Origin: a virus | Taxonomy: Duplodnaviria; Caudoviricetes | Strand: one strand, 5' to 3' | Virus record (IMG/VR): IMGVR_UViG_3300034093_001339 | Span: 1-34,358 of that record | Length of the DNA: 34,358 nucleotides | Shown: positions 1 to 14,990 of the stretch, piece by piece | How positions within the stretch are numbered: the stretch's first letter is position 1 | Layout: the number at the start of each line of letters is the position of its first letter | Program-made: the position numbers and the translations under genes | The notes under the pieces: generated by a model | What the model was told of the DNA's origin: nothing | What the model saw: the letters and a program-made list of their open reading frames with translations, nothing else | The model's database searches: none

Positions 1-44
1 TGTTAATCAGAATGTCCGTGGTTCGACCCCACGTCAGGGAGCCA
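1..44 (+). tRNA. trnN: tRNA-Asn(GTT), 3' part (cut by window edge)
   Basis: TGTTAA anticodon loop remnant, T-arm CGTGG-TTCGACC-CCACG, ends GCCA. Confidence 0.85.
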
Positions 45-75
45 AAATTTTAAACGTAACAGTGAAGGAAATCAC

Positions 76-297
76 ATGCCTAAAGTACGTAACGACTTTA
101 AAGTATATCCATACCAAGCTACTGCTAAACCGGGTGTTGAGCAATGGCAAGTACGGTCTGGTAGCACTGATGTGCATATTACATCTAACACACTTGCTGA
201 AGCAGAACGTGTTGCCGCTGCATTAAATGCAGATCCATACTACTTGGAACGTGGCAATACACAAGCTGATCGTGCTAAGATGAAGCCCGCAGCATAA
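76..297 (+). CDS. hypothetical protein (73 aa)
   Basis: ORF with GAAGGA SD, fills gap between tRNAs. Confidence 0.7.
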   Translation: MPKVRNDFKVYPYQATAKPGVEQWQVRSGSTDVHITSNTLAEAERVAAALNADPYYLERGNTQADRAKMKPAA

Positions 298-369
298 AGA
301 ATAAAAACACGGTACTGCTTAATCGAAGCAGCTAAGTCGTCCAACTAAGGACAAGAGCCAAACACATAT

Positions 370-457
370 GGAGCGATGGCCGAGAGGCTTAAGGCAACAG
401 GTTGCTAACTTGTCGTACCGCAAGGTACCGTGGGTTCGAATCCCACTCGCTCCGCCA
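370..457 (+). tRNA. trnS: tRNA-Ser(GCT)
   Basis: GGAGCGA/TCGCTCC acceptor, loop TTGCTAA, long variable arm, GCCA. Confidence 0.95.
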
Positions 458-465
458 AACTATTT

Positions 466-541
466 GGGGTATTAGCTCAGTTGGGAGAGCGACTGGTTTG
501 CAACCAGTAGGTCAACGGTTCGATCCCGTTATACTCCACCA
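466..541 (+). tRNA. trnA: tRNA-Ala(TGC)
   Basis: cloverleaf, loop TTTGCAA, G3:U70, ACCA. Confidence 0.95.
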
Positions 542-550
542 AATAACAAT

Positions 551-626
551 GCGGGATTAGCTCAGTTGGTAGAGCGTCTGCTTTACACGCAGAATGTCGG
601 CAGTTCGAACCTGTCATCCCGCACCA
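551..626 (+). tRNA. trnV: tRNA-Val(TAC)
   Basis: TCTGC-TTTACAC-GCAGA arm, ACCA. Confidence 0.95.
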
Positions 627-691
627 AGATACACCTAGTGTGTAACGAGGAGAGGTTGTAGGTCCTTGTACAAAAAATCTTCAAAATAATT

Positions 692-768
692 GGCCTGTTA
701 GTCGAGTGGTTTAAGATGCTTGCCTGTCACGCAAGAGATCACGGGTTCAATTCCCGTACAGGTCGCCA
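692..768 (+). tRNA. trnD: tRNA-Asp(GTC)
   Basis: CTTGC-CTGTCAC-GCAAG arm, GCCA. Confidence 0.95.
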
Positions 769-855
769 ATACATACTTTGCCAAACAATAATAATGGGGC
801 GGAATTTGTAAGCCGTTTAGAAGTGTGTTAGTTTGTCCAAACTTAAAATGGTCAT

Positions 856-930
856 GCGGGTGTAGCTCAGTGGTAGAGCGCTGTCCTTCCAAGTCAGATG
901 TCGAGGGTTCGAATCCCTTCGCCCGCTCCA
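856..930 (+). tRNA. trnG: tRNA-Gly(TCC)
   Basis: GCGGGTG acceptor, loop CTTCCAA, TCCA. Confidence 0.95.
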
Positions 931-931
931 A

Positions 932-1039
932 CATTACTTTGATGATACAATGGTTAATCCATCATAGAAAAGCAGTAGTGATACTGTTGTCCGACGATAA
1001 CATCATAGGGGTAAGGAACATTGTATCTTCTAAGTAATG
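932..1039 (+). ncRNA. wrapper-stem RNA cassette, family 1 copy 1
   Basis: CATTACTTTGATGATACA...TGTATCTTCTAAGTAATG terminal stem shared with 6172-6290 and 7501-7602; internal GTGA tetraloop hairpin 971-988. Confidence 0.7.
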
Positions 1040-1046
1040 ATTTTTA

Positions 1047-1121
1047 GCTGGTGTGGCCCAATGGTAAGGCAACTCACTTGTAATGAGTAGATTGGGAGTT
1101 CGATTCTCTCCACCAGCACCA
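1047..1121 (+). tRNA. trnT: tRNA-Thr(TGT)
   Basis: ACTCA-CTTGTAA-TGAGT arm, ACCA. Confidence 0.95.
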
Positions 1122-1129
1122 AAAACAAT

Positions 1130-1158
1130 GCGGATGTGGTGTAATGGTAGCCACGCTG
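1130..1158 (+). pseudogene. orphan 5' fragment of tRNA-Leu (acceptor 5' strand + D arm)
   Basis: GCGGATGTGGTGTAATGGTAGCCACG nearly identical to the start of tRNA-Leu at 1615. Confidence 0.85.
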
Positions 1159-1197
1159 AAAAGATGCATTAATGTGTTTACTGTGATAAATAAACGT

Positions 1198-1629
1198 ATG
1201 CAACAAATAACTGAATATATCACATTGCCGCAGACTGTGCGACAGCAACACCTCAAACTTGCCGAACCTTGCATTGAACGAGGTGGACAAAGCATGTATC
1301 TAAAGGGGTTGCTTGCACATATTTTAGATACAACAATCCCGTCAGGTAGCAAAATTCATGTGTGCCACGCATGTCATAATGCACTATGCAGTAACCCAAA
1401 TCATTTGTATTGGGGGACGCCAGGAGAAAATGCTCTTGACCGAGACTCTCAGCACAAGCTAACTGTATGGGATAAAATGGTTCAAAAATACGGGCTCGAT
1501 GAAGCTCGAAAGATGAATAGCAAGACCGGTAATAAGAATGGTGCCGGTAATAAAGGAAAACCAAAATCCGAAGAGCACAGAAAAAAAATTGCTCTTGCGT
1601 TGACAAAGAATAATGCGGATGTGGCGTAA
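1198..1629 (+). CDS. HNH homing endonuclease with C-terminal NUMOD3-like motif
   Basis: CHACHNALCSNPNHLYWGTPGEN HNH/zinc-loop motif; GKPKSEEHRKKI; probable ATG 1198 just after ATAAATA; stop lies inside tRNA-Leu. Confidence 0.85.
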   Translation: MQQITEYITLPQTVRQQHLKLAEPCIERGGQSMYLKGLLAHILDTTIPSGSKIHVCHACHNALCSNPNHLYWGTPGENALDRDSQHKLTVWDKMVQKYGLDEARKMNSKTGNKNGAGNKGKPKSEEHRKKIALALTKNNADVA

Positions 1630-1698
1630 TTGGTAGCCGCGGCAGACTTAGAATCTGTTTCCTCTGGAGTGGGGGTTCGAGTCCCTTCATCCGCACCA
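1615..1698 (+). tRNA. trnL: tRNA-Leu(TAG)
   Basis: GCAGA-CTTAGAA-TCTGT arm, long variable arm, ACCA. Confidence 0.95.
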
Positions 1699-1705
1699 AA
1701 GTATT

Positions 1706-1782
1706 CGGAGTGTAGCTCAGTTTGGTAGAGCGCCTGGTTTGGGACCAGGATGTCGTGGGTTCAAATCCTGTCACTCCGACCA
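1706..1782 (+). tRNA. trnP: tRNA-Pro(TGG)
   Basis: CCTGG-TTTGGGA-CCAGG arm, ACCA. Confidence 0.95.
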
Positions 1783-1785
1783 ACT

Positions 1786-2110
1786 ATTATAGTGTTGAGC
1801 AACAACAACACGGTTGCAGCAATGCAGCCCGCTATAATCGGTAAGCTAGGACCGTTTGTTGTAACTGTCAAATGAGAAGACTGAGTAACTAGTTTTAGAC
1901 CTAGTGAAAAAGGCCAACCGACTGTGACGGGTATCCCGGGTTGAGAGAGGTTGGGGTGAATGGTGTTGTGTAACCAAAACAATATGCACTCATGGGGTAT
2001 CGTGTCAAACGTCTAAAAGCCTGCTGCAACGAAATGGCAGCTCTGGATGACGGTAACCAGAATGAAATTTTATAAAGCCGTGTCCCATGATAAGAACATA
2101 GTGGACCGGC
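1786..2110 (+). ncRNA. candidate structured ncRNA(s)
   Basis: no credible ORF; dense helices incl. ATTATAGTG/CGCTATAAT, GGTTGCA-GCAA-TGCAGCC, CATGGGGTAT/GTGTCCCATG. Confidence 0.5.
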
Positions 2111-2115
2111 ACAAT

Positions 2116-2190
2116 GCGGGTGTAGCTCAGGGGTAGAGCGTCTGCTTGCCAAGCAGAATGTCGGCAGTTCGAATCTGCTCACCCGCTCCA
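2116..2190 (+). tRNA. trnG: tRNA-Gly(GCC)
   Basis: TCTGC-TTGCCAA-GCAGA arm, TCCA. Confidence 0.95.
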
Positions 2191-2194
2191 GTTT

Positions 2195-2270
2195 GTAGGT
2201 GTAGCTCAGTTGGTAGAGCGTCGGTCTCCAAAACCGAATGTCCAAGGTTCGAGTCCTTGCTCCTGCGCCA
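2195..2270 (+). tRNA. trnW: tRNA-Trp(CCA)
   Basis: TCGGT-CTCCAAA-ACCGA arm, GCCA. Confidence 0.93.
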
Positions 2271-2464
2271 AAATTGGGAGTTAGCCGCCCAAGACCAGTG
2301 TCCACGATATTCTCATTCCAACTTGACACTCTAATAAACTTTTGTATTGAGCGTAACCCACTATCGTTAAGACTGGGAGGTTTTGAGGGATGTTTTACCG
2401 TAAAAAACATAACGGGTATTGATGCATACCTAATGAAGGGTTGGCCCCCAGCATCGACTATTTT

Positions 2465-2541
2465 GCGTCCTTGGTGCCAGATGGATGGCCACAGGGATTC
2501 TAACCCCTAGGAGGCAGGCTCGATACCTGTAGGACGCACCA
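2465..2541 (+). tRNA. atypical tRNA (Arg TCT-like, or CTA-reading), 8-nt anticodon loop
   Basis: perfect GCGTCCT/AGGACGC acceptor and ACCA; AGGG-ATTCTAAC-CCCT arm; T loop CTCGATA. Confidence 0.65.
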
Positions 2542-2559
2542 TTTACGAAGGAACATGCT

Positions 2560-2736
2560 ATGTTTATGACCAAAAAAGAAATCGAAACTGCTGTTCGAGT
2601 TTGGCCAGCTAACGCAGAGGCTCCGCTGACTAGAGATCAGCAAATAGAACTTATGACTACAGCACGGGTGAGACACCTTGCTAAAATTGAAAAAACCATC
2701 AGATTAATCAAAGGAAAAAATGATGTCGTAGATTGA
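2560..2736 (+). CDS. hypothetical protein (58 aa, MFMTKKEIE...)
   Basis: GAAGGA SD; open frame read manually (below ORF-track cutoff). Confidence 0.6.
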   Translation: MFMTKKEIETAVRVWPANAEAPLTRDQQIELMTTARVRHLAKIEKTIRLIKGKNDVVD

Positions 2737-2800
2737 ATATGCTTGTGGGGAATTAGTTTTCCACTTTAACAAAAAACACTTAGAAGATGATAATATTCCG

Positions 2801-3316
2801 ATGTGGGTTGTTAAGATGCGAGGCGAAACATTTTATGTTAGTCACGTTGAATGTAGCATTCCGTGGAGCACAAAAGAAACGCCAGACAACAACCACACCA
2901 AAGGTAGCGTCAAAGTTAAAAATTGTTTGGTCGTGATTGATGATAGCAACACTGCAATCATTACAAAGCTGACTGAAGAAGATAAGAAACGGCTCAGTAA
3001 CAAAAAACAGTTTATCAGAGTTATCACCAGCTCTGGTGCGAAACTAATCAATGCTATTGAAGAGATTGGTATTGAGACCGGTACTGTCAAAAGAGCAGGC
3101 GGCGGGTGTGGTACGTTGTGGTTTATTACAGAACTGTATAACTACGATGAGTTTTTTCAACTGAAGTTTGTGATGATTGGCACTGATTTTAGAGTGTTAA
3201 TGGAAAACGAGGACTACTACAAGCTGTATGGTTCAGCTAAGGAAGAAGACACTTGGTTGGACGAAGATACGGATGATGAAGATATTGACGATTACGAATC
3301 GTTATACGAAGAATAA
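2801..3316 (+). CDS. hypothetical phage protein with acidic tail; probable true start 2720/2723 blocked by in-frame TAG
   Basis: ORF track; frame stays open upstream to TAG 2729-2731, preceded by SD AAGGA and ATGATG. Confidence 0.75.
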   Translation: MWVVKMRGETFYVSHVECSIPWSTKETPDNNHTKGSVKVKNCLVVIDDSNTAIITKLTEEDKKRLSNKKQFIRVITSSGAKLINAIEEIGIETGTVKRAGGGCGTLWFITELYNYDEFFQLKFVMIGTDFRVLMENEDYYKLYGSAKEEDTWLDEDTDDEDIDDYESLYEE

Positions 3317-3317
3317 T

Positions 3318-3393
3318 GCTGCTATAGCTCAGTTGGTAGAGCACCTGATTAGTAATCAGGGTGTCGGGAGTTCGAATCTCTCTAGCAGCACCA
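3318..3393 (+). tRNA. trnT: tRNA-Thr(AGT)
   Basis: CCTGA-TTAGTAA-TCAGG arm, ACCA. Confidence 0.93.
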
Positions 3394-3394
3394 G

Positions 3395-3402
3395 TATAAA
3401 TA
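3395..3402 (+). promoter_or_regulatory. T4-like late promoter TATAAATA
   Basis: exact T4 late consensus; (A)TAAATA recurs before genes at 1186, 7754, 9339, 16977, 18806, 21113, 25479, 33224. Confidence 0.65.
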
Positions 3403-3460
3403 CATATGGTACTTACTGTTTACCCTAGGGAGAAGGCGAGTAAGTTAAAAGAATGCGTGT

Positions 3461-4267
3461 ATGACTGCCAATGTATTTTATAAAGGAAACAGCAACATGG
3501 TAACTAAATTAGTTGTAGGATTAACTGACTCGTTGCAGAGTGAATTTGTATCAAAACCAGATGAATCTAAGGATCATTATGATGATCAGACTGTATCGGT
3601 TGATGTATATGCTATTCCTGCATCATGTAATGTGACAGCAACCGAAACATTAGAATGGATACTCGATACTGAACTGCCAGGTGTTTCTAGTTTAAATACT
3701 ATAGTAGAACAAATGAAAACTAGGCTATTACTCAGAGACGTTATAATTATTAAACGAAATCCAATAGATGGGTATACTAGTTTTAGTTTAATCTTTGGAC
3801 TATTAAATTATGTCCCAAACCCAGCAGTAACATATACTGAATTTATAGATCAAGATTACAACTCATTGATAGAATCTCCTAGATTTGGTGATCTTGTATT
3901 AGAAGAAGTATACGGCTATGAAATTAACGGCGTTCCACATACCAGTTCATTGTCATATGCAGTTGATCACGACACAACAGAATATTTAGCAAATGCTTAT
4001 CCTCCCCGTAGCACGGTGCCAATGTTTAATGTTAGATTTACTATCGGTGAACAGAACAACAAACCACAAACTGAACTGGCTCCCGAGTTTATTGATTGGT
4101 TCAATAATAATCTAAGTTCTCTAAGTGCAAAAGGTTGGGATATTAATAACTCAAAGTCAAGAGTTGGGTTTTATGTTGCAGGCAGGTTAGTCGGAGATCC
4201 ATGGGAACAGTATTTGAAATTAGCAAACAACCCTTACATATGCACTATTAATATTGTAGAAGAATGA
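3461..4267 (+). CDS. hypothetical protein, paralog of 4272-5042 (start may be 3497)
   Basis: long ORF; shared blocks VGLTD, FGD, GDPW, IC..VEE. Confidence 0.85.
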   Translation: MTANVFYKGNSNMVTKLVVGLTDSLQSEFVSKPDESKDHYDDQTVSVDVYAIPASCNVTATETLEWILDTELPGVSSLNTIVEQMKTRLLLRDVIIIKRNPIDGYTSFSLIFGLLNYVPNPAVTYTEFIDQDYNSLIESPRFGDLVLEEVYGYEINGVPHTSSLSYAVDHDTTEYLANAYPPRSTVPMFNVRFTIGEQNNKPQTELAPEFIDWFNNNLSSLSAKGWDINNSKSRVGFYVAGRLVGDPWEQYLKLANNPYICTINIVEE

Positions 4268-4271
4268 TACG

Positions 4272-5042
4272 ATGACTAAAATAAATTTTGTTATTGGACT
4301 AACAGATGTTGAAGATTATGACGGATTTGTTTATGATACATTTCCGAATGAAGATAACATTGATAGAGTATCCTATAATATACAACGAGCAGATACTAGT
4401 ATAGAAAAAGATTCGATTGTGTGGGAATTAGATCTAACATTAGATGCTACTAAAAACATAATAAAGGTATGGGAACATATCATAAGAAGACCTCACCTTG
4501 CAATGATCCATCGGGTAGCTACAAAAAATGTTCTAGCACCGACCTATACTAACTATAATTTAAATATACATTTTACAAATTTGATTCCTATTTTATCTGA
4601 CTATAAATTAACTCTGACTAATAGTGATTATGAAAAATTCACTCAAGCAAGTAATTTTGGCGACATGTATTTGGATCAATTTGTATTGTATCAAGCCAGT
4701 AATATAAATTGGCAAACCACGTTGGAATATGCATGTGTGCATGACACGATTGATAAACTTAATGTACATAATCCATTAACGGTATTACCAGGATTTGTGT
4801 TTGACTTTGAATTAAAACCCAATCAGTTTAATACTACAGCTAGGCGTGATCTGCGTTTTGTTGAATGGATTAATGAAAATAAAGATGCACTTGCTGAAAA
4901 AGGATATACATTGGATGATCCATATTGCACTGTTGGTAGATTGTGCATAGGTAAACTGATAGGTGATCCGTGGGATGAGTATCAAAAGTTACAAAAATAC
5001 AGTAGGATATGTCGTACCAGTATGGTAACAGTAGAAGAATAA
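4272..5042 (+). CDS. hypothetical protein, paralog of 3461-4267
   Basis: long ORF; collinear similarity with upstream gene. Confidence 0.85.
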   Translation: MTKINFVIGLTDVEDYDGFVYDTFPNEDNIDRVSYNIQRADTSIEKDSIVWELDLTLDATKNIIKVWEHIIRRPHLAMIHRVATKNVLAPTYTNYNLNIHFTNLIPILSDYKLTLTNSDYEKFTQASNFGDMYLDQFVLYQASNINWQTTLEYACVHDTIDKLNVHNPLTVLPGFVFDFELKPNQFNTTARRDLRFVEWINENKDALAEKGYTLDDPYCTVGRLCIGKLIGDPWDEYQKLQKYSRICRTSMVTVEE

Positions 5043-5045
5043 TTT

Positions 5046-5133
5046 GGAAAGCTGGGCGAGTGGTTTATGCCTGCAGTCTTGAAAACTGCCGAACCGCAAG
5101 GTTCCGTGAGTTCGAATCTCACGCTTTCCGCCA
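5046..5133 (+). tRNA. trnS: tRNA-Ser(TGA)
   Basis: GCAGT-CTTGAAA-ACTGC arm, long variable arm, GCCA. Confidence 0.95.
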
Positions 5134-5169
5134 AAAATAAAAAAATGTGTCTAAATTGTCAAAAAGATG

Positions 5170-5198
5170 TTGACACAAGATGATAAATAAAGTATAAC
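5170..5198 (+). promoter_or_regulatory. sigma70 promoter with embedded ATAAATA late motif
   Basis: TTGACA-17 nt-TATAAC. Confidence 0.8.
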
Positions 5199-5241
5199 AG
5201 TATTGTAAGTTAAGAGACTTCCAAGCTAAAGAGATAAACAA

Positions 5242-5334
5242 ATGAACCTCACTATGCAACAACATATGATTCAGATTAACGTTGAAAAACGCCATGAGTA
5301 TCGCTTTGGTATCATGGAGGGACTGCGAAACTAA
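5242..5334 (+). CDS. putative attenuator leader peptide (30 aa, MNLTMQQHMIQINVEKRHEYRFGIMEGLRN)
   Basis: AGAG SD; ORF overlaps alternative hairpins and ends ~25 nt before an intrinsic terminator. Confidence 0.65.
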   Translation: MNLTMQQHMIQINVEKRHEYRFGIMEGLRN

Positions 5335-5357
5335 TAGTGTAAACATACACAAGTTTC

Positions 5358-5392
5358 AAAACCCTCCAGTAGCAATACTAGGAGGGTTTTTT
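5358..5392 (+). terminator. intrinsic terminator (attenuator 3:4 hairpin)
   Basis: AAAACCCTCC-AGTA-GCAA-TACT-A-GGAGGG-TTTTTT. Confidence 0.85.
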
Positions 5393-5510
5393 ATTGAACT
5401 AAAGTGGAAATGCGGAACGTGACTGCGAGTAACCACTATAAACAAACTCAAATGGGCGGCCTCGGTGATGAAAGCGCAAGCTGAAAAATCCGAGAGATAA
5501 ACAAAACTAC

Positions 5511-5622
5511 AATTCTGTTTACACATGCACAACAGCCATACCTAGCTAGGTGGTAGTGGAACTATAAGTATCAAGATACAAAAACACGTTCGATTCGTGG
5601 TTGTGCAGATGTAAACAGAATT
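5511..5622 (+). ncRNA. wrapper-stem RNA cassette, family 2 copy 1 (tRNA-like cargo)
   Basis: AATTCTGTTTACA-CA-TGCACAAC / GTTGTGCA-GA-TGTAAACAGAATT stem; T arm CACG-TTCGATT-CGTG. Confidence 0.7.
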
Positions 5623-5698
5623 GGTGCTATAGCTCAGTTGGCAGAGCAGTAGACTCATATTCTACGTGTCGTAGGTTCGATTCCTACTAGCACCACCA
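5623..5698 (+). tRNA. tRNA-Met or Ile2 (CAT)
   Basis: GTAGA-CTCATAT-TCTAC arm; G1:C72 so not initiator. Confidence 0.9.
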
Positions 5699-5704
5699 AA
5701 ACAT

Positions 5705-5782
5705 GGCCCCATAGTTTACGATTGGTTAGAATACTGGACTTTCAATCCGGAGAAGCGGGATCAACGCCCGCTGGGGCTACCA
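5705..5782 (+). tRNA. trnE: tRNA-Glu(TTC)
   Basis: CTGGA-CTTTCAA-TCCGG arm; atypical T loop ATCAACG. Confidence 0.88.
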
Positions 5783-5801
5783 AAAAAAAGTAAAATAGTT
5801 C

Positions 5802-5830
5802 TTGACAAGTAAGAGCTCTTACACTATATT
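5802..5830 (+). promoter_or_regulatory. sigma70 promoter with palindromic operator in spacer
   Basis: TTGACA-AGTAAGAGCTCTTACAC-TATATT. Confidence 0.8.
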
Positions 5831-5862
5831 ATACATGTAGGAAGAAAAAAGAGGATACTGCA

Positions 5863-6000
5863 ATGTCAGAAGTTACCAAATGTGTTGCTATTGTTGCTAA
5901 TCTTGCGGTTGCTGTAATGTTGTTAAGTATCTATGTTAACTACGATCCCATGCGTTCAGCAATTAACTCTGCTGTGTTGCAGGCGATTATAAGCGAATAA
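5863..6000 (+). CDS. small hydrophobic (single TM) protein, 45 aa
   Basis: GAGGA SD, promoter upstream, CVAIVANLAVAVMLLSIYV. Confidence 0.65.
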   Translation: MSEVTKCVAIVANLAVAVMLLSIYVNYDPMRSAINSAVLQAIISE

Positions 6001-6007
6001 AGAATTT

Positions 6008-6091
6008 GGGCATCACCCCGCAAGGTGCGGGAGCGGACTGTAAATCCGTCGGGGAAACCCACGCTAGGTTCGATTCCTAGGATGCCCACCA
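6008..6091 (+). tRNA. trnY: tRNA-Tyr(GTA) with extended D stem
   Basis: GCGGA-CTGTAAA-TCCGT arm, long variable arm, D arm CCCGCA-AGG-TGCGGG. Confidence 0.9.
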
Positions 6092-6097
6092 AATAAT

Positions 6098-6172
6098 GCC
6101 TCGGTAGCTCATTGGTAGAGCGTTCGCCTGAAGAGCGGAGCGTAGGGAGTTCGATTCTCCCCCTTGGCACCA
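6098..6172 (+). tRNA. trnF: tRNA-Phe(GAA)
   Basis: loop CTGAAGA; two acceptor mismatches. Confidence 0.85.
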
Positions 6173-6290
6173 TTACTTTGATGATACACTAGAGAGCAGA
6201 TAGCCTTTTGTAACTAAGACAACTCCGTAGGTTACAGACTTGAGCGCAGCATGGTTAGGGAGTTGCCGGCTAGTGTATCTTCTAAGTAAT
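6172..6290 (+). ncRNA. wrapper-stem RNA cassette, family 1 copy 2 (pseudoknotted cargo)
   Basis: ATTACTTTGATGATACACTAG / CTAGTGTATCTTCTAAGTAAT. Confidence 0.7.
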
Positions 6291-6300
6291 AGGAGTAAAG

Positions 6301-6690
6301 ATGTTAGAGTGTTTAATCATTGGGGATAGTATTGCACAAGGTATAGGGCAACACAGATCAGATTGTGTATCAGAAGCTAAAGTAGGTATTAACAGTCGTA
6401 ACTATGTCGAGACGTATACATTACCCGAATCAAAGTTAACAGTAATTAGTCTTGGTAGTAACGATTTAGGTATGAGCAACCAATATACTGTGCTATATAA
6501 CTTGCGTGGCGAAATTAAAGGCATTGTGCTATGGATATTGCCAGCTAACAATGACGAAGCGAGGAGCAATATACTAACTATTGCAAACATTCATAACGAT
6601 AAAGTTGCTGATATTAGACAACTGCCGTTAAGTAAAGATGGTGTTCATCCTACTACAAAAAGCTATAAAGCACTAGCAAAACAATTTTAA
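6301..6690 (+). CDS. SGNH/GDSL-family hydrolase
   Basis: IIGDSIA, SLGSND and DGVHP motifs. Confidence 0.85.
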   Translation: MLECLIIGDSIAQGIGQHRSDCVSEAKVGINSRNYVETYTLPESKLTVISLGSNDLGMSNQYTVLYNLRGEIKGIVLWILPANNDEARSNILTIANIHNDKVADIRQLPLSKDGVHPTTKSYKALAKQF

Positions 6691-6691
6691 T

Positions 6692-6714
6692 GCGCTGGTA
6701 GCTCAGAGGCGGAG
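6692..6714 (+). pseudogene. orphan 5' fragment of tRNA-Lys
   Basis: GCGCTGGTAGCTCAGAGGCGGAG vs GCGCCGGTAGCTCAGAGGCAGAG at 6870. Confidence 0.75.
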
Positions 6715-6751
6715 AAACCCCGTATGCGCTATCAAAATTAAGGAAACTGTA

Positions 6752-6964
6752 ATGGTTGAAAAGTTAAATTTGTCAAAAGAAGAAATAGCAAAGATAGAAG
6801 AGATTAGAAAAAATCCTCCACCAATGACAGACTATGTTAGGCAATATATTGAAGCCTATAGAAAAAAATGCGCCGGTAGCTCAGAGGCAGAGCAGGGAGC
6901 TCTTAACTCCAAGGTCGAGGTTTCAAAATCCTCTCGGCACACCAAAATAACTCTTGACAAGTAA
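6752..6964 (+). CDS. hypothetical protein reading through tRNA-Lys(CTT)
   Basis: AAGGA SD; ORF track. Confidence 0.5.
   Translation: MVEKLNLSKEEIAKIEEIRKNPPPMTDYVRQYIEAYRKKCAGSSEAEQGALNSKVEVSKSSRHTKITLDK
6870..6944 (+). tRNA. trnK: tRNA-Lys(CTT)
   Basis: loop CTCTTAA; T arm GAGGT-TTCAAAA-TCCTC; ACCA. Confidence 0.85.
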
Positions 6965-6982
6965 GACGTCTTACTATATAAA
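6954..6982 (+). promoter_or_regulatory. sigma70 promoter with perfect 16-bp palindrome in spacer
   Basis: TTGACA-AGTAAGACGTCTTACTA-TATAAA. Confidence 0.8.
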
Positions 6983-7309: not shown

Positions 7310-7436
7310 AGTGCCGAAGGAGCGTAATCCATTTGTTCAACATTTGGTTATGAAACATTCCGGACCGCACGGTAAAACTAAAAAAGCCGAACGTAGAGCA
7401 GAGAAGATTGCTTTACGCAAACAAATGGACCGGTAG
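7293..7436 (+). CDS. small basic protein (47 aa, MKRKPKVPKERNPFVQHL...)
   Basis: GAAGGA SD, GTG start, stop TAG inside tRNA-Lys(TTT). Confidence 0.65.
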   Translation: MKRKPKVPKERNPFVQHLVMKHSGPHGKTKKAERRAEKIALRKQMDR

Positions 7437-7501
7437 CTCAGAGGCAGAGCAGGGGGCTTTTAATCCCAAGGTCGAGATTTCAAAATTCTCTCGGTTCACC
7501 A
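7427..7501 (+). tRNA. trnK: tRNA-Lys(TTT)
   Basis: loop CTTTTAA; T arm GAGAT-TTCAAAA-TTCTC; ACCA. Confidence 0.88.
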
Positions 7502-7602
7502 TTACTTTGATGATACACTGATACCGAAGGGCACGACGGTTTGGTTAGTACCCCTGATGCCGGGCGAATGGTTCGAATCCAACAGTGTATCTTCTAAGTA
7601 AT
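7501..7602 (+). ncRNA. wrapper-stem RNA cassette, family 1 copy 3 (tRNA-like cargo)
   Basis: ATTACTTTGATGATACACTG / CAGTGTATCTTCTAAGTAAT; TGG-TTCGAAT-CCA T arm. Confidence 0.7.
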
Positions 7603-7608
7603 GAATAT

Positions 7609-7683
7609 TGCCTCTTAGCTCAGTGGTAGAGCAAACGGCTGATAACCGTTAGGTCACTAGTTCAAATCTAGTAGGGGCAACCA
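7609..7683 (+). tRNA. trnI: tRNA-Ile(GAT)
   Basis: AACGG-CTGATAA-CCGTT arm, ACCA. Confidence 0.95.
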
Positions 7684-7689
7684 AAATAT

Positions 7690-7747
7690 ACTTCCGTAGC
7701 TCAACTGGACAGAGCACCACGCTACGAACGTGAAGGTTGGGGGTTCG
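7690..7747 (+). pseudogene. tRNA-Arg(ACG) truncated in the T loop
   Basis: D arm, CACG-CTACGAA-CGTG arm and GGGGGTTCG, then unrelated sequence. Confidence 0.85.
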
Positions 7748-7765
7748 CAAATGATAAATAAACAT

Positions 7766-8479
7766 ATGAACTATAAAAAACATTATGATTTATTAATCGA
7801 GCGAGCAAAGATAAGACAATTAACAGATTATGTTGAAAGACATCATATTGTTCCTAGATGTATGGGCGGAACAGACGATAAGTCTAATTTAGTAGAACTA
7901 ACGCCCGAGGAACACTATGTAGCACATCAGTTATTAGTTAAGATGTATCCAGAAAACGACAGTTTAGTTTATGCTGCTACTAAGATGACGGTGGCATCAA
8001 AGACAGTAAAAAGAAAAAACAAAAGATATGGCTGGCTTAAAAGACGCTATCAAAGTGTTTGTAAAAAAAGGATAGGAAATAAAAATCCTAGTTATGATCG
8101 TAGTTGGTATTATTGTCCAGAAACTTTAAATGAAGGAAAATTTCTATCAAGTAATATTCCAGCTGGTTGGATAAAAGGACGAAAATCAATAACTAAAGAA
8201 AACACTAAATGTTCTTCGTGCGAAACTGATACTAATAGTAAAAAATCTAAATGGTGTAATACATGTCGACGTATACATGGAAATTACAAAAAAGATGGTG
8301 CTAAAAAACAAGTTAAATCTAAAGATGCGTTTACTACAGAAGAAAAAACAAACGCATTAATAGACAATAACGGAAATATCCGCAAAGCGTTATTTTCGTT
8401 AGGATTAAATGATAGCGGATCACATTATAAAAAAATGAAAGAAATAAAGGCGTCTGTATACCCTCTGGCTACGAACTAG
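7766..8479 (+). CDS. HNH homing endonuclease (T4 MobE-like N-terminal HNH)
   Basis: ERHHIVPRCMGGTDDKSNLVELTPEEHYVAHQLL; C-terminal CxxC pairs; probable ATG 7766 after ATAAATA. Confidence 0.9.
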   Translation: MNYKKHYDLLIERAKIRQLTDYVERHHIVPRCMGGTDDKSNLVELTPEEHYVAHQLLVKMYPENDSLVYAATKMTVASKTVKRKNKRYGWLKRRYQSVCKKRIGNKNPSYDRSWYYCPETLNEGKFLSSNIPAGWIKGRKSITKENTKCSSCETDTNSKKSKWCNTCRRIHGNYKKDGAKKQVKSKDAFTTEEKTNALIDNNGNIRKALFSLGLNDSGSHYKKMKEIKASVYPLATN

Positions 8480-8529
8480 TTGAAAGGTTAACTGGACACA
8501 TGGGGGTTCGACTCCTCCCAGGCGCACCA
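8450..8529 (+). tRNA. non-canonical (strand-rewired) tRNA-Arg(ACG)-like RNA
   Basis: acceptor GCGTCTG/CAGGCGC+ACCA, T arm intact, anticodon hairpin precedes the D-loop sequence. Confidence 0.7.
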
Positions 8530-8591
8530 AATAGTTATAACGGACTTGGTTGTGTGCGAAACACGTAATACCAAGTTGCACAAACAGAAGC

Positions 8592-8720
8592 GATTCTGTT
8601 TTCACATGCACTATGGTTGGGGCCAAGCGGCTGGCCTGAATCCATAATACTCCTTGGGTGATGCCTTTCGGGAGCAAGCTAGGTTCAAATCCTAGACGTA
8701 GTGCAGTTGAAAACAGAGTT
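8592..8720 (+). ncRNA. wrapper-stem RNA cassette, family 2 copy 2 (tRNA-like cargo)
   Basis: GATTCTGTTTTCA-CA-TGCACTATG / CGTAGTGCA-GT-TGAAAACAGAGTT; T arm CTAGG-TTCAAAT-CCTAG. Confidence 0.7.
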
Positions 8721-8722
8721 GT

Positions 8723-8798
8723 TGGGGGATAGTGTAGTCGGTAACATAACTGACTTTGAATCAGGAGATGGCAGGTTCGAGCCCTGCTCCCCCAGCCA
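8723..8798 (+). tRNA. trnQ: tRNA-Gln(TTG)
   Basis: U1:A72, loop CTTTGAA, GCCA. Confidence 0.93.
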
Positions 8799-8799
8799 A

Positions 8800-9156
8800 G
8801 ACAACATTATATAGTGGTTCGAAACGTTATATGATGAGAATGCTTCCCACCCTGTGGAACCTCGGGGTGAGCAGATTGGCTTGCCACAGCGCAGGTGAAG
8901 GGGTAAAAGTCCCAATGGGGGTTCTGGGAATTAGTATTGATCCATCCTCTGATCCGCTAACTGATTCTAGATAAGGGGTTAGCCAAGATGGTGACGTCGA
9001 CCTTAGCTAAAGCTGGCGAAATATACAGGTCGTTAAACTGGCTACAACCTGAGTAGAAATAAACGTTGTGAAACTGCTCTCGAAATTCAAATAGGTGACG
9101 GCAATCACCTTAACTGGGAGACTACATACCGTTGTTTTGCCGAACTTTGGTGTAGT
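8800..9156 (+). ncRNA. candidate large structured ncRNA
   Basis: no credible ORF; back-to-back helices and a possible pseudoknot. Confidence 0.55.
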
Positions 9157-9157
9157 A

Positions 9158-9229
9158 GACTGTTTCGTCTAGAGGATAGGATAAGCCCCGTAAAGGGGCG
9201 AGACATGGGTTCGAATCCCATAACAGTTT
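9158..9229 (+). pseudogene. tRNA-like RNA with 5-nt anticodon loop, no CCA
   Basis: GACTGTT/AACAGTT acceptor, GCCCC-GTAAA-GGGGC, ATGGG-TTCGAAT-CCCAT. Confidence 0.7.
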
Positions 9230-9249
9230 TGCTCCTAGTTAGAAATTAT

Positions 9250-9325
9250 CTGTTCGTAGCTCAACTGGAAGAGCAAGGGATTTCTACTCCCTAGGTTGAG
9301 GGTTCGAGTCCTTCCGGGCAGGCCA
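9250..9325 (+). tRNA. trnR: tRNA-Arg(TCT)
   Basis: AGGGA-TTTCTAC-TCCCT arm, GCCA. Confidence 0.93.
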
Positions 9326-9351
9326 AATTACACCAACTGATAAATATTTGC

Positions 9352-9789
9352 ATGAAGATATACGAAGTTTATCAAGGTAAAATAAATTGGATTGCTCCTA
9401 ACGCAGATCGTGAGCATGACGAAGTTCTTTATCAACTTGAAAATTATGACCCACAGCATATGCCAGATTGGGCGCATGAACGTTTGCAGCAACTAGCAGA
9501 TAAAAGAGTATTTCGTGCTGCAATTGCAAGGGCAAAAGTAAAATTGTTGTCTAGGAACGATGTAAGGGGCGCAGGCAACACAGGTGATAGTTGGACCGAT
9601 ACGCTCAAATGGACTGAACCTGCAAAAAGTGCCCGTGCACCAACACTATACGGAAATGATAAGAAGGTAGAGCGCCCTATATATCTTCAAGATCCTAGTA
9701 CTGGTGGGCTTTGGTTACTAGGCGGACATCATCGTAGCACATACGTTACTGCTGTTCTTAAACAACCAGTAGAAGCTACTATAATTTAA
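9352..9789 (+). CDS. ParB/Srx-like domain protein, probably late-expressed
   Basis: PIYL...LLGGHHR motif; ATAAATA directly upstream. Confidence 0.55.
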   Translation: MKIYEVYQGKINWIAPNADREHDEVLYQLENYDPQHMPDWAHERLQQLADKRVFRAAIARAKVKLLSRNDVRGAGNTGDSWTDTLKWTEPAKSARAPTLYGNDKKVERPIYLQDPSTGGLWLLGGHHRSTYVTAVLKQPVEATII

Positions 9790-9813
9790 TATACAACAAA
9801 GGTATCAATCACA

Positions 9814-10974
9814 GTGACCCCGGCATTAATCACTCGTAACACCTTAGCAGGTATTACAACAAGTCTTGCTATGGTGCCAGAGGTTGTTGCATTTGCATTG
9901 TTAGCACAAGTTAACCCATTAGTTGGCTTATATGCGGCTGTGATACTAGGGTTAGTTACATCTATATTTGGTGGAAGGCCCGGTCTTATTAGCGGAGGTG
10001 CTGGCAGTTTAGCTGTTGTATCTGTGGCACTGGTAGTATCACACGGTGTCGAATACCTGTTTGCATGTATTATACTCATGGGTATTATACAGTTTGTATT
10101 TGGTGCATTAAAACTAGGTAAGTTAATAAAACTAGTCAGTCCAAGTGTAATGACAGGGTTTGTTAATGGATTGGCATTGGTAATTTTTCTAGCACAACTA
10201 GAGCAACTCAAATCAAACGGTTTATGGTTGCAAAGTTACGAACTTGCTAGTATGTTAGGCTTGATTGCTATTACAATATTTGGTGTATACATTGCTCCAA
10301 AAATTACACGCCACATACCTGCAAGTTTATTTGGGATTGTGTTAGTGACTGTGTTTGTGATGATATTTGGCATTGATGCTAAAACTGTAGGTGATATTGC
10401 TCATATTAGCGGTAACTTACCAACGTTACATATACCCAACATACCGTGGACGCTAGAGACGCTGTGGATCGTAGCACCTTACAGTTTTATATTAGCAGCA
10501 GTTGGGCTAATAGAAACTTTACTTACTGCTAACCTTGTGGACGACTTTGTGCAAAATCACAAAACACAACCAAATAAGGAAAGTATAGCGCAAGGCATAG
10601 GTAATATACTAACAGGCTTGTTTGGCGGTATGGGCGGATGTGCTATGATAGGACAGACGGTTATCAACTTAAAAGCAGGCGGCACCCACAGGCTTGCTGG
10701 TGTAGTAGAAGCACTTTCTATACTTGCATACATTGTATTTGCCAGTGCTGTTATTGAATCTATTCCTATTGCAGCATTAGTTGGTGTTATGTGTATGGTA
10801 TGCTATTATACATTTGATTGGACTAGTTTCAAAATTATAGATAAACCCAAACAAGATGTTGCGATTATTGTAATAGTAACTACTGTAACGGTATTGCTAA
10901 ATCTTGCATATGCTGTCATATTAGGTATTATACTAACATACATATTTCAAAAATTTGAAAAGGAGTCGTTATGA
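9814..10974 (+). CDS. sulP: SulP/SLC26 inorganic anion transporter lacking STAS domain
   Basis: LAMVPEVVAFA, FGGRPGLISG, GGMGGCAMIGQT motifs; many TM segments. Confidence 0.92.
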   Translation: MTPALITRNTLAGITTSLAMVPEVVAFALLAQVNPLVGLYAAVILGLVTSIFGGRPGLISGGAGSLAVVSVALVVSHGVEYLFACIILMGIIQFVFGALKLGKLIKLVSPSVMTGFVNGLALVIFLAQLEQLKSNGLWLQSYELASMLGLIAITIFGVYIAPKITRHIPASLFGIVLVTVFVMIFGIDAKTVGDIAHISGNLPTLHIPNIPWTLETLWIVAPYSFILAAVGLIETLLTANLVDDFVQNHKTQPNKESIAQGIGNILTGLFGGMGGCAMIGQTVINLKAGGTHRLAGVVEALSILAYIVFASAVIESIPIAALVGVMCMVCYYTFDWTSFKIIDKPKQDVAIIVIVTTVTVLLNLAYAVILGIILTYIFQKFEKESL

Positions 10975-11222
10975 GAACAAAAGCATTTAGACGACATCAA
11001 ATAGAACGTAAAAAAGCGTGGGCTACAAATGCTGCACATGAGTGGTATAGGAATTTTCCAGAAACTCAACCTACAGCACGACAAATTGGTAGACTGTTAC
11101 ATACACCTAAAGCATGTAGTTGCTGGATGTGTGGTAACCAACGTCGGCTTGACGGCGATACTATACAAGAAAGAAAAAGCAAAGATATCCTGCGAAGTAG
11201 TGTTAACGGTCAGCACACTTGA
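10971..11222 (+). CDS. hypothetical basic Cys-motif protein
   Basis: AGGAG SD; CSCWMCGNQRR; stop inside tRNA-His. Confidence 0.75.
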   Translation: MRTKAFRRHQIERKKAWATNAAHEWYRNFPETQPTARQIGRLLHTPKACSCWMCGNQRRLDGDTIQERKSKDILRSSVNGQHT

Positions 11223-11267
11223 TTGTGGATCAAGGAGAGCAAGGTTCGAATCCTTCCCGCAGGACCA
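11189..11267 (+). tRNA. trnH: tRNA-His(GTG), bulged acceptor, A73, no G-1
   Basis: CTTGA-TTGTGGA-TCAAG arm; CCTGCG(AA)G/CCGCAGG-ACCA. Confidence 0.8.
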
Positions 11268-11283
11268 AAATTCGGAGACTACA

Positions 11284-11493
11284 ATGAAATCAACTGCACG
11301 AAATGTAGGCAATGTTAACCTTAAAGGTAAGAAGACTAGACTACTTCGATGTGGATGCTGTTCTGCATTCAACTGCAAAGAAGATGAATTGCGTAAAGAA
11401 CACAAAAAAGAAATGAGATATGCCCCTGTAACGGAAATTGGTAAACCTCTTCAGTCGAGAGCTGCAGGATTTATGGGTTCGAGTCCCATCTAG
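11284..11493 (+). CDS. hypothetical protein (CGCC motif) overlapping tRNA-Leu(GAG)
   Basis: GGAG SD before ATG 11284. Confidence 0.6.
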   Translation: MKSTARNVGNVNLKGKKTRLLRCGCCSAFNCKEDELRKEHKKEMRYAPVTEIGKPLQSRAAGFMGSSPI

Positions 11494-11500
11494 GGCACCA
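11422..11500 (+). tRNA. degenerate tRNA-Leu(GAG)-like
   Basis: CAG-TCGAGAG-CTG, T arm ATGGG-TTCGAGT-CCCAT, ACCA; acceptor mismatches, C33. Confidence 0.6.
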
Positions 11501-14732: not shown

Positions 14733-14990
14733 ATGCTAACTAAACAAGAACTAACTGAACAACTGTTAACCGGCGTATATAACGTTACGTTTACTAAAGT
14801 GGACGGTACTGAAAGAACAATGCCCTGCACACTTAGAGAGGATATCCTACCGCCTGCTAAACAGGAGGATCCACTTTCACTAAAGAAAGTGCGGGCAATC
14901 AATGACAACGTCCTAGTAGTATACTGCACAGACAAAAACGAATGGCGAAGCTTTCGTGTAGCTAATGTAATAAATGTTACCGCCGCCTAA
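14733..14990 (+). CDS. WYL_2/Sm-like SH3 beta-barrel protein
   Basis: VTFTKVDGTERTMPCTL...WRSFR. Confidence 0.8.
   Translation: MLTKQELTEQLLTGVYNVTFTKVDGTERTMPCTLREDILPPAKQEDPLSLKKVRAINDNVLVVYCTDKNEWRSFRVANVINVTAA

Follow-up and report, generated by a model that had tools for sequence, protein, structure and literature searches.

A leader ORF, an antiterminator and a terminator form a likely ribosome-coupled attenuator ahead of tRNA genes in a large phage

A block of phage tRNA genes is preceded by a short leader open reading frame (ORF) whose end overlaps an antiterminator that excludes an intrinsic terminator. Judged from its sequence and from modelled folding, this arrangement is likely a ribosome-coupled attenuator that reads the charged-tRNA supply of the block downstream. 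The window, by which we mean the whole stretch of DNA analysed, is a virus record of 34,358 bases with 24 tRNA genes, all on the plus strand and within the first 11.5 kb; phage replication genes come after them. Its DnaB-like helicase is 51-52% identical to those of the PA5oct/Paride group and 49% identical to that of Atu_ph07, and the window phage is therefore a large T4-like phage. Leader-peptide attenuation of the hisL/trpL type is known; what is likely new, as far as the sequence can tell, is the tRNA-gene target and a leader that is free of codon runs and matched to the downstream tRNAs.

The locus has the hallmarks of a leader-peptide attenuator (Table 1). A short ORF lies between a promoter and an intrinsic terminator, an antiterminator at the end of this ORF excludes the terminator, and the regulatory codons are related to the downstream product, in that leader composition tracks the downstream tRNAs. 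The coordinates originally predicted for the promoter, the 30-codon ORF and helices 1:2, 2:3 and 3:4 were all confirmed on the sequence. Antiterminator 2:3 had been described as two helices (5315-21/5362-68 and 5327-32/5352-57), both of which are present, but a third, inner helix (5337-41/5346-50) had been missed. The sigma70-like promoter matches 11 of 12 consensus letters and, because its -10 element lacks the final T, is absent from the promoter-scan list. When both strands of the 34 kb window were searched with a strict detector, two terminators were returned, and only that at 5358-5392 has an antiterminator and an upstream ORF (uORF). In relatives, the counterpart of the upstream tRNA block has a complementary leader of its own; in the window's phage such a leader, if present, lies outside the window.

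The non-coding element just 3' of the terminator is highly conserved and could be an antitermination or processing signal. It is also found in loci L156, L170, L179, L181, L394, L431 and L440, with a variant in L163 and L404. A consensus fold for this element was weak (-1.96 kcal/mol) and was discarded. In L001, L013 and L025 the same position is occupied instead by a sequence that we take to resemble the rrn boxA.

Table 1. Positions of the elements of the putative attenuator and of the neighbouring tRNA genes and promoters in the window.
Feature	Position	Strand	Remarks
Upstream tRNA block: Asn 3' part (by eye), Ser, Ala, Val, Asp, Gly, Thr, Leu, Pro, Gly, Trp, Thr, Ser	1..5133	+	
sigma70-like promoter	5170..5198	+	TTGACA (-35, 5170-75), 17-nt spacer, TATAAC (5193-98)
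ATAAATA motif, likely phage late-type promoter	5183..5189	+	overlaps the sigma70-like promoter
5' leader and ribosome-binding region	5218..5237	+	predicted default-off fold: pairs with 5299-5320 when untranslated
Leader ORF, 30 codons	5242..5334	+	stop ends 19 nt past the start of the GGAGGG arm; modelled sensing codons about 2-21
1:2 hairpin, weak, possible pause hairpin	5292..5317	+	-8.3 kcal/mol
Antiterminator 2:3, three stacked helices	5315..5368	+	-20.3 kcal/mol
Intrinsic terminator 3:4 with U tract to 5392	5358..5392	+	hairpin 5358-5390, -18.3 kcal/mol
Conserved non-coding element just 3' of the terminator	5400..5460	+	no Rfam match
tRNA-Met(CAT), tRNA-Glu(TTC)	5623..5782	+	no other tRNA gene lies between the terminator and the promoter at 5802
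Internal sigma70 promoter	5802..5830	+	14-bp palindrome in spacer
tRNA-Tyr(GTA), Phe(GAA), Lys(CTT)	6008..6944	+	
Second internal sigma70 promoter	6954..6982	+	related 16-bp palindrome
tRNA-Lys(TTT), Ile(GAT), Gln(TTG), Leu(TAA), Arg(TCT), His(GTG), Leu(GAG)	within 7427..11500	+	

Folding of the leader region indicated two mutually exclusive structures. The fold of 5200-5400 had a z of -4.08, with 0 of 200 shuffles as stable, and the spacer of the antiterminator was more structured than shuffles (z -3.3). The 2:3 fold is slightly more stable than the terminator (-20.3 and -18.3 kcal/mol, respectively), with only -8.3 kcal/mol for the 1:2 hairpin. The influence of ribosome position was modelled by moving a 30-nt ribosome mask, a crude footprint, along a transcript ending before segment 4 under equilibrium folding. 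With the mask at codons 1-20, 2:3 formed with a P of 0.98-1.0; P fell to 0.83 at codon 21 and to 0.10 at codon 22, and was 0 from codon 23. In silico, ribosome position therefore switches the fold at codons 21-23.

Since 2:3 forms with the ribosome at codons 1-21, a stall almost anywhere in that stretch would allow read-through, and 1:2 would be unneeded; the short transcript without a ribosome also folds into 2:3. Sensing had been placed over segment 1 (codons 15-25), and the model gives a wider stretch, codons ~2-21. With -8.3 kcal/mol, and a P of about 0 in competition with 2:3, hairpin 1:2 is probably too weak to act as the deciding anti-antiterminator. In equilibrium folds of the full-length RNA the terminator always wins, so that the outcome of the switch would depend on timing, that is, on kinetics. 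In the proposed mechanism, a ribosome that keeps pace would reach codon ~22 and cover the GGAGGG arm, and the terminator would form. If the ribosome were slowed anywhere within codons ~2-21, the arm would stay free, 2:3 would form before the 3' arm of the terminator is made, and the polymerase would continue into the tRNA genes. This ribosome-position logic is that of the his attenuator (PMC4046918).

Eight orthologues were aligned with respect to these elements. Terminator 3:4 is conserved, and all 11 gap runs inside the ORF, at 4 distinct positions, are 3 nt long, whereas those outside it are 1-5 nt long. For 1:2, 82.5% of the cells are paired, one pair is changed on both sides and two pairs are broken in six of the eight sequences. 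Pairing of the 5' leader with segment 2 was rejected as a family feature: apart from the window it was found, by eye, only in L440, and the 5' leader is A-rich and without visible complementarity to segment 2 in 6 of 7 orthologues.

The same layout recurs at other phage tRNA blocks. IMG/VR was scanned with patterns in which an arm is followed first by its complement and then by a second copy of the arm ahead of a T run; none of the patterns contained tRNA information. Three exact arm patterns yielded 53, 33 and 23 viral loci (109 in total, some of them copies of one phage), and a same-strand tRNA lies within 1.5 kb in 76 of the 109, 87 of which have that much flank. An ATG ORF whose stop lies 8-30 nt past the arm start was present at 73 of the 76 tRNA-linked viral loci, compared to 7 of the 33 without a tRNA. 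In the first set, that of 53 loci, 36 of 41 stops fall at +18, +19 or +22, and the window's stop is at +19. With z below -2 counted as more structured than shuffles, the inter-arm spacer, left free in the patterns, qualified in 32 of the 49 distinct tRNA-linked viral loci; the figures are 3 of 31 for the other viral loci and 30 of 120 for the bacterial matches listed.

In bacterial genomes, the GGAGGG pattern gave at least 120 loci, 72 with 1.5 kb of flank; among those listed, three lie near a tRNA and none has both a tRNA and a uORF. The bacterial matches listed include leaders rich in Thr, His or Phe/Tyr/Trp whose stops lie at about +12 to +17, and this recovery of classical amino-acid leaders with similar stop distances serves as a positive control for the geometry. 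Metagenome loci with the pattern have a tRNA in 27 of 119 cases, 24 of these 27 with a uORF. The leader peptide of L409 is identical to that of the window and that of L440 differs at two residues. The antiterminator is conserved with at least three arm sequences. These results bear out the conservation of the antiterminator pairing in homologous loci, on which the original prediction had been staked: it is kept at many phage tRNA blocks, with differing arms, a fixed stop position and indels that keep the frame. A degenerate pattern was set aside, since most of what it found were ordinary terminators and a tRNA lay near 19 of its 121 matches (40 loci with 300-nt flanks only); matches with a fitting antiterminator were near a tRNA in 9 of 18 cases, compared to 10 of 103 without one. 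Separately, loci of Hyphomonadaceae/Alphaproteobacteria (including L262, L270, L274, L281 and L286) have a conserved 25-codon leader with an antiterminator and a terminator; this leader has no codon run, and no tRNA lies downstream.

The composition of the leader follows the tRNA genes downstream of it. As originally noted, the window leader has no run of one amino acid, the longest run being two Gln codons. It samples about ten amino acids, once to four times each, so that shortage of any of those tRNAs would count, and single scattered codons may stall ribosomes less than runs do. The observation that 21 of its 30 codons specify M, Q, H, I, E, K, R, Y or F was confirmed, and this fraction is enriched over the 0.41 found in 23 window proteins (p = 0.001). 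These are specificities of downstream tRNAs, but the list had left out two Leu tRNAs that also lie downstream. The reported absence of S, A, D, P and W holds (0 of 29; p = 3e-4), although this set was picked with hindsight; when all nine amino acids whose tRNAs lie upstream only are counted (S, A, V, D, G, T, P, W and N), they take up 7 of 29 codons, compared to 0.50 (p = 0.0045). Five of the 23 core codons (N, T, V, G) have no downstream tRNA.

A folding-based detector returned 296 loose calls, which stricter thresholds, set after the loose list had been viewed, reduced to 138 calls, 72 peptides and 31 families; five families with fewer than five tRNAs were dropped from the permutation test, leaving 26. 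The multi-codon match claimed for the window leader held across these families when tRNA blocks were permuted among leaders (26 families, z 7.5), none of 20,000 permutations being as good. The z was 6.7 for 19 partial blocks and 5.5 for 14 families after merging kin (0 of 20,000 each), values that overstate independence because leader families share ancestry. Matched codons made up 0.68 of the sensing stretch, compared to 0.50 (z 5.1), and 0.57 of the tail, compared to 0.50 (z 2.3). Where the block is complete, its leader mostly draws on 19-20 amino acids, and narrow blocks have narrow leaders, as in L194 (11 amino acids, 5 tRNA types, 0.85 matched); the match is poor in L157, L199, L225 and L153. 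Four contigs carry both a window-type leader and a complementary-block leader and were compared by matched fractions only, which were 1.00 and 0.70 (L158, L163), 0.91 and 0.74 (L167, L181), 0.95 and 0.86 (L179) and 0.77 and 0.95 (L431); ARAGORN at default settings missed tRNA-Tyr in L163 and L181. In 16 related leaders, the presence of a codon was compared with that of its tRNA gene: the two agree in 15 leaders for Cys and in 14 for Gln, both Gln mismatches being cut-off blocks. The window has Gln codons and a downstream tRNA-Gln, and neither a Cys codon nor a tRNA-Cys.

Composition also bears on an improbable alternative, a general translation-stress attenuator of the whiB7 or toiL uORF kind, which any slowing of the ribosome, for instance by antibiotics or ribosome damage, would open and in which the tRNA match is secondary or a matter of tuning. 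Such a switch would accord with a leader that lacks a codon run, uORFs that sense many stalls being known (PMC12121999), and with the 19-20 amino acids used before complete blocks and the lack of exact-anticodon bias. The modelled switch would answer any stall in codons 2-21. A general stress sensor does not predict, however, that composition follows the block, nor that Cys and Gln codons track tRNA genes.

At the level of anticodons, no preference for exact matches was found (178 compared to 180 expected of 378 codons; 5 compared to 6.9 of 13 in the window), and wobble-readable codons were favoured (104 compared to 88 of 154; z 2.7). That the match is clear for amino acids and absent for exact anticodons speaks for a sensor tuned to host amino-acid starvation, that is, to uncharged tRNA, with the added tRNAs competing better for scarce amino acids. 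This reading, which differs from the preferred one in its trigger only, also draws on the response of classical attenuators to uncharged tRNA (PMC4046918). We consider it very unlikely given the wobble-level match and the fact that an extra tRNA replaces a cleaved tRNA (PMC11555353) but does not cure a lack of amino acid. For the attenuator that reads charged-tRNA supply, whatever lowers charged tRNA would likely act as the trigger, be it cleavage or degradation of host tRNA or starvation. Amino-acid starvation fits as a trigger as well as anticodon nucleases do.

Of all 7-mers upstream of leaders, the ATAAATA motif, which we take to resemble the T4 late promoter, ranks first; it occurs in 15 of 31 families, compared to 1.4% of background windows. 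The window has 11 copies on the plus strand and 0 on the minus strand, and 9 of the 11 precede an ORF. We infer that transcription of the switch starts from a phage late-type promoter. The internal promoters predicted at 5802 and 6954 are both present and of sigma70 type; as they lie inside the block, only tRNA-Met and tRNA-Glu are wholly dependent on read-through. The proposed gating of the tRNA array would therefore apply fully to these two genes, whereas most of the block has internal promoters too. For the remaining tRNAs, the switch is likely a booster that adds a conditional extra supply to that from the internal promoters. An exact TTGACA is present between the terminator and the first tRNA in 12 of 31 families (raw count). 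The two internal promoters are near-identical, each precedes a short ORF, and each has a perfect palindrome (14-16 bp) between -35 and -10, a candidate operator; a WYL_2 protein is encoded at 14733-14990.

Scarcely credible is a plain terminator between the two tRNA blocks, in which the ORF and the complementarity would be vestigial or due to chance and the downstream tRNAs would be made from internal promoters: such promoters do exist and the full RNA folds into the terminator at equilibrium, but the promoter motif about 60 nt before the ORF, the conserved stop position and frame, the structured spacers and a composition that matches across unrelated leaders all argue against it.

The element was also traced in environmental and reference data. 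At least 70% of the words of 5000-6300 are present in 14 lake-water metagenome runs, or 11 without possible source samples, and no sequence variation inside the leader was found in four DNA runs. Pieces of the leader occur in four metatranscriptomes at a contig depth of 2-6, one contig (5104-5465) beginning upstream of the promoter; because these are contigs only, no start, end or level can be read from them, and DNA carry-over is possible. When the leader region was compared by blastn with 50,697 phage records, the best 20 of 1,412 records matched the tRNA-Met end only, and none of these 20 covered 80% of the query. Rfam covariance models gave no match over 5170-5500 at the gathering score or at E up to 5, which places the leader region in neither the T-box nor any other Rfam riboswitch family, and Pfam returned nothing for the leader peptide.

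Several other features lie among the tRNA genes of the window. Elements at about 935-1037, 6175-6290 and 7503-7600 end in a common pair of complementary arms but differ in their cores; one has a tRNA-like T arm, and they may be a structured RNA or a mobile cassette. At about 5515-5618 and 8586-8716 are tRNA-like inserts, each enclosed by a long outer stem that is conserved, detected at relaxed ARAGORN thresholds only; similar inserts are present in L170, L181, L201 and L431. Region 7690-8526 consists of an ORF (7730-8479; HNH-like by eye, with no Pfam match) flanked by two partial tRNA-like copies with an ACG loop by eye (weak Rfam matches), and 1127-1698 has a similar arrangement around a His-Me endonuclease-like ORF, before tRNA-Leu. 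A tRNA-like gene at about 2465-2541, detected at the relaxed threshold only, has CTA or similar in its anticodon loop and is possibly of the amber-suppressor type. A gene for a transporter of the sulfate-permease family (9814-10974) lies within the phage tRNA block.

The tRNA regions of six cultured jumbo phages were checked, and the leader and helices expected in related jumbo phages are present in three of them, Atu_ph07, Phosso and RsoM2USA. In Atu_ph07 and Phosso, leader, antiterminator and terminator precede the main tRNA cluster; the Atu_ph07 terminator lies near record position 339,090 on the minus strand, and the Phosso switch, whose leader has a GTG start, lies near 419,950. RsoM2USA has two complementary leaders, one fully matched to a block of 12 types and the other matched at 21 of 24 codons (by eye). 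The corresponding regions of Paride, XaC1 and XacN1 showed no switch of this kind, although the Paride group is the closest cultured kin by helicase. The cultured carriers have laboratory hosts (Sinorhizobium meliloti for Phosso, Agrobacterium tumefaciens C58 for Atu_ph07), and the element is about 230 nt long.

Why phages should encode tRNAs has long been asked, and phage tRNAs have lately been linked to escape from tRNA-cleaving defences; the PARIS work reportedly treats them as counter-defence. A broader reading of the switch, to which we give tentatively a little under an even chance, is that large phages possess a programmable tRNA-shortage alarm, in which block-specific leaders, rewritten when tRNAs move or are lost, would detect host tRNAs destroyed by nucleases and transcribe matching replacements. 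Were this true, leader sequences would map which tRNAs hosts attack in the wild, and such codon-by-codon feedback on tRNA supply would mean that phages monitor tRNA attack and answer it. The attenuator, if it works as proposed, would also extend attenuation from biosynthetic operons to tRNA genes, and its leaders could be compact reporters of charged-tRNA pools.

The trp/his attenuator layout first assigned to the locus stands as regards the promoter, the ORF and the competing helices, but the run of one amino acid is absent and the predicted 1:2 is weak. With the amino-acid operon attenuators (hisL, trpL, pheL) the locus shares a promoter, a short ORF, mutually exclusive antiterminator and terminator, and predicted read-through on stalling, and its stop-to-arm distance is similar to that of Thr-, His- and aromatic-rich bacterial leaders. 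Unlike these attenuators, the window switch precedes phage tRNA genes instead of biosynthetic enzymes, and it differs from the classical cases in its weak 1:2, the lack of a codon run and the internal promoters that bypass part of the block. Multivalent leaders, those of thrL and ilvGMEDA, are known among amino-acid operon attenuators. No account of attenuation of tRNA genes was found in the literature searched, whose coverage excludes most subscription journals and supplements.

Three systems are related in other respects. The Anabaena trn operon with TrcR is likewise a tRNA array switched on under translational stress, but it is controlled at initiation by a protein repressor (PMC8421152, PMC10272220); attenuat-, leader peptide and terminator have 0 occurrences in the text of PMC8421152. 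The T5 tRNA-Tyr that acts against retron-Eco7 is likewise a phage tRNA replacing one destroyed by a defence, and its expression level matters (PMC11555353). In contrast to an attenuator, rescue by T5 is attributed to a strong promoter, and attenuat- occurs 0 times in PMC11555353. The toiL and whiB7 leader uORFs (PMC12121999) resemble the window leader in having no single-amino-acid run and many possible trigger stalls. However, toiL acts via translation repression and Rho (PMC12121999), whereas the window has an intrinsic terminator and a leader composition matched to its tRNA set.
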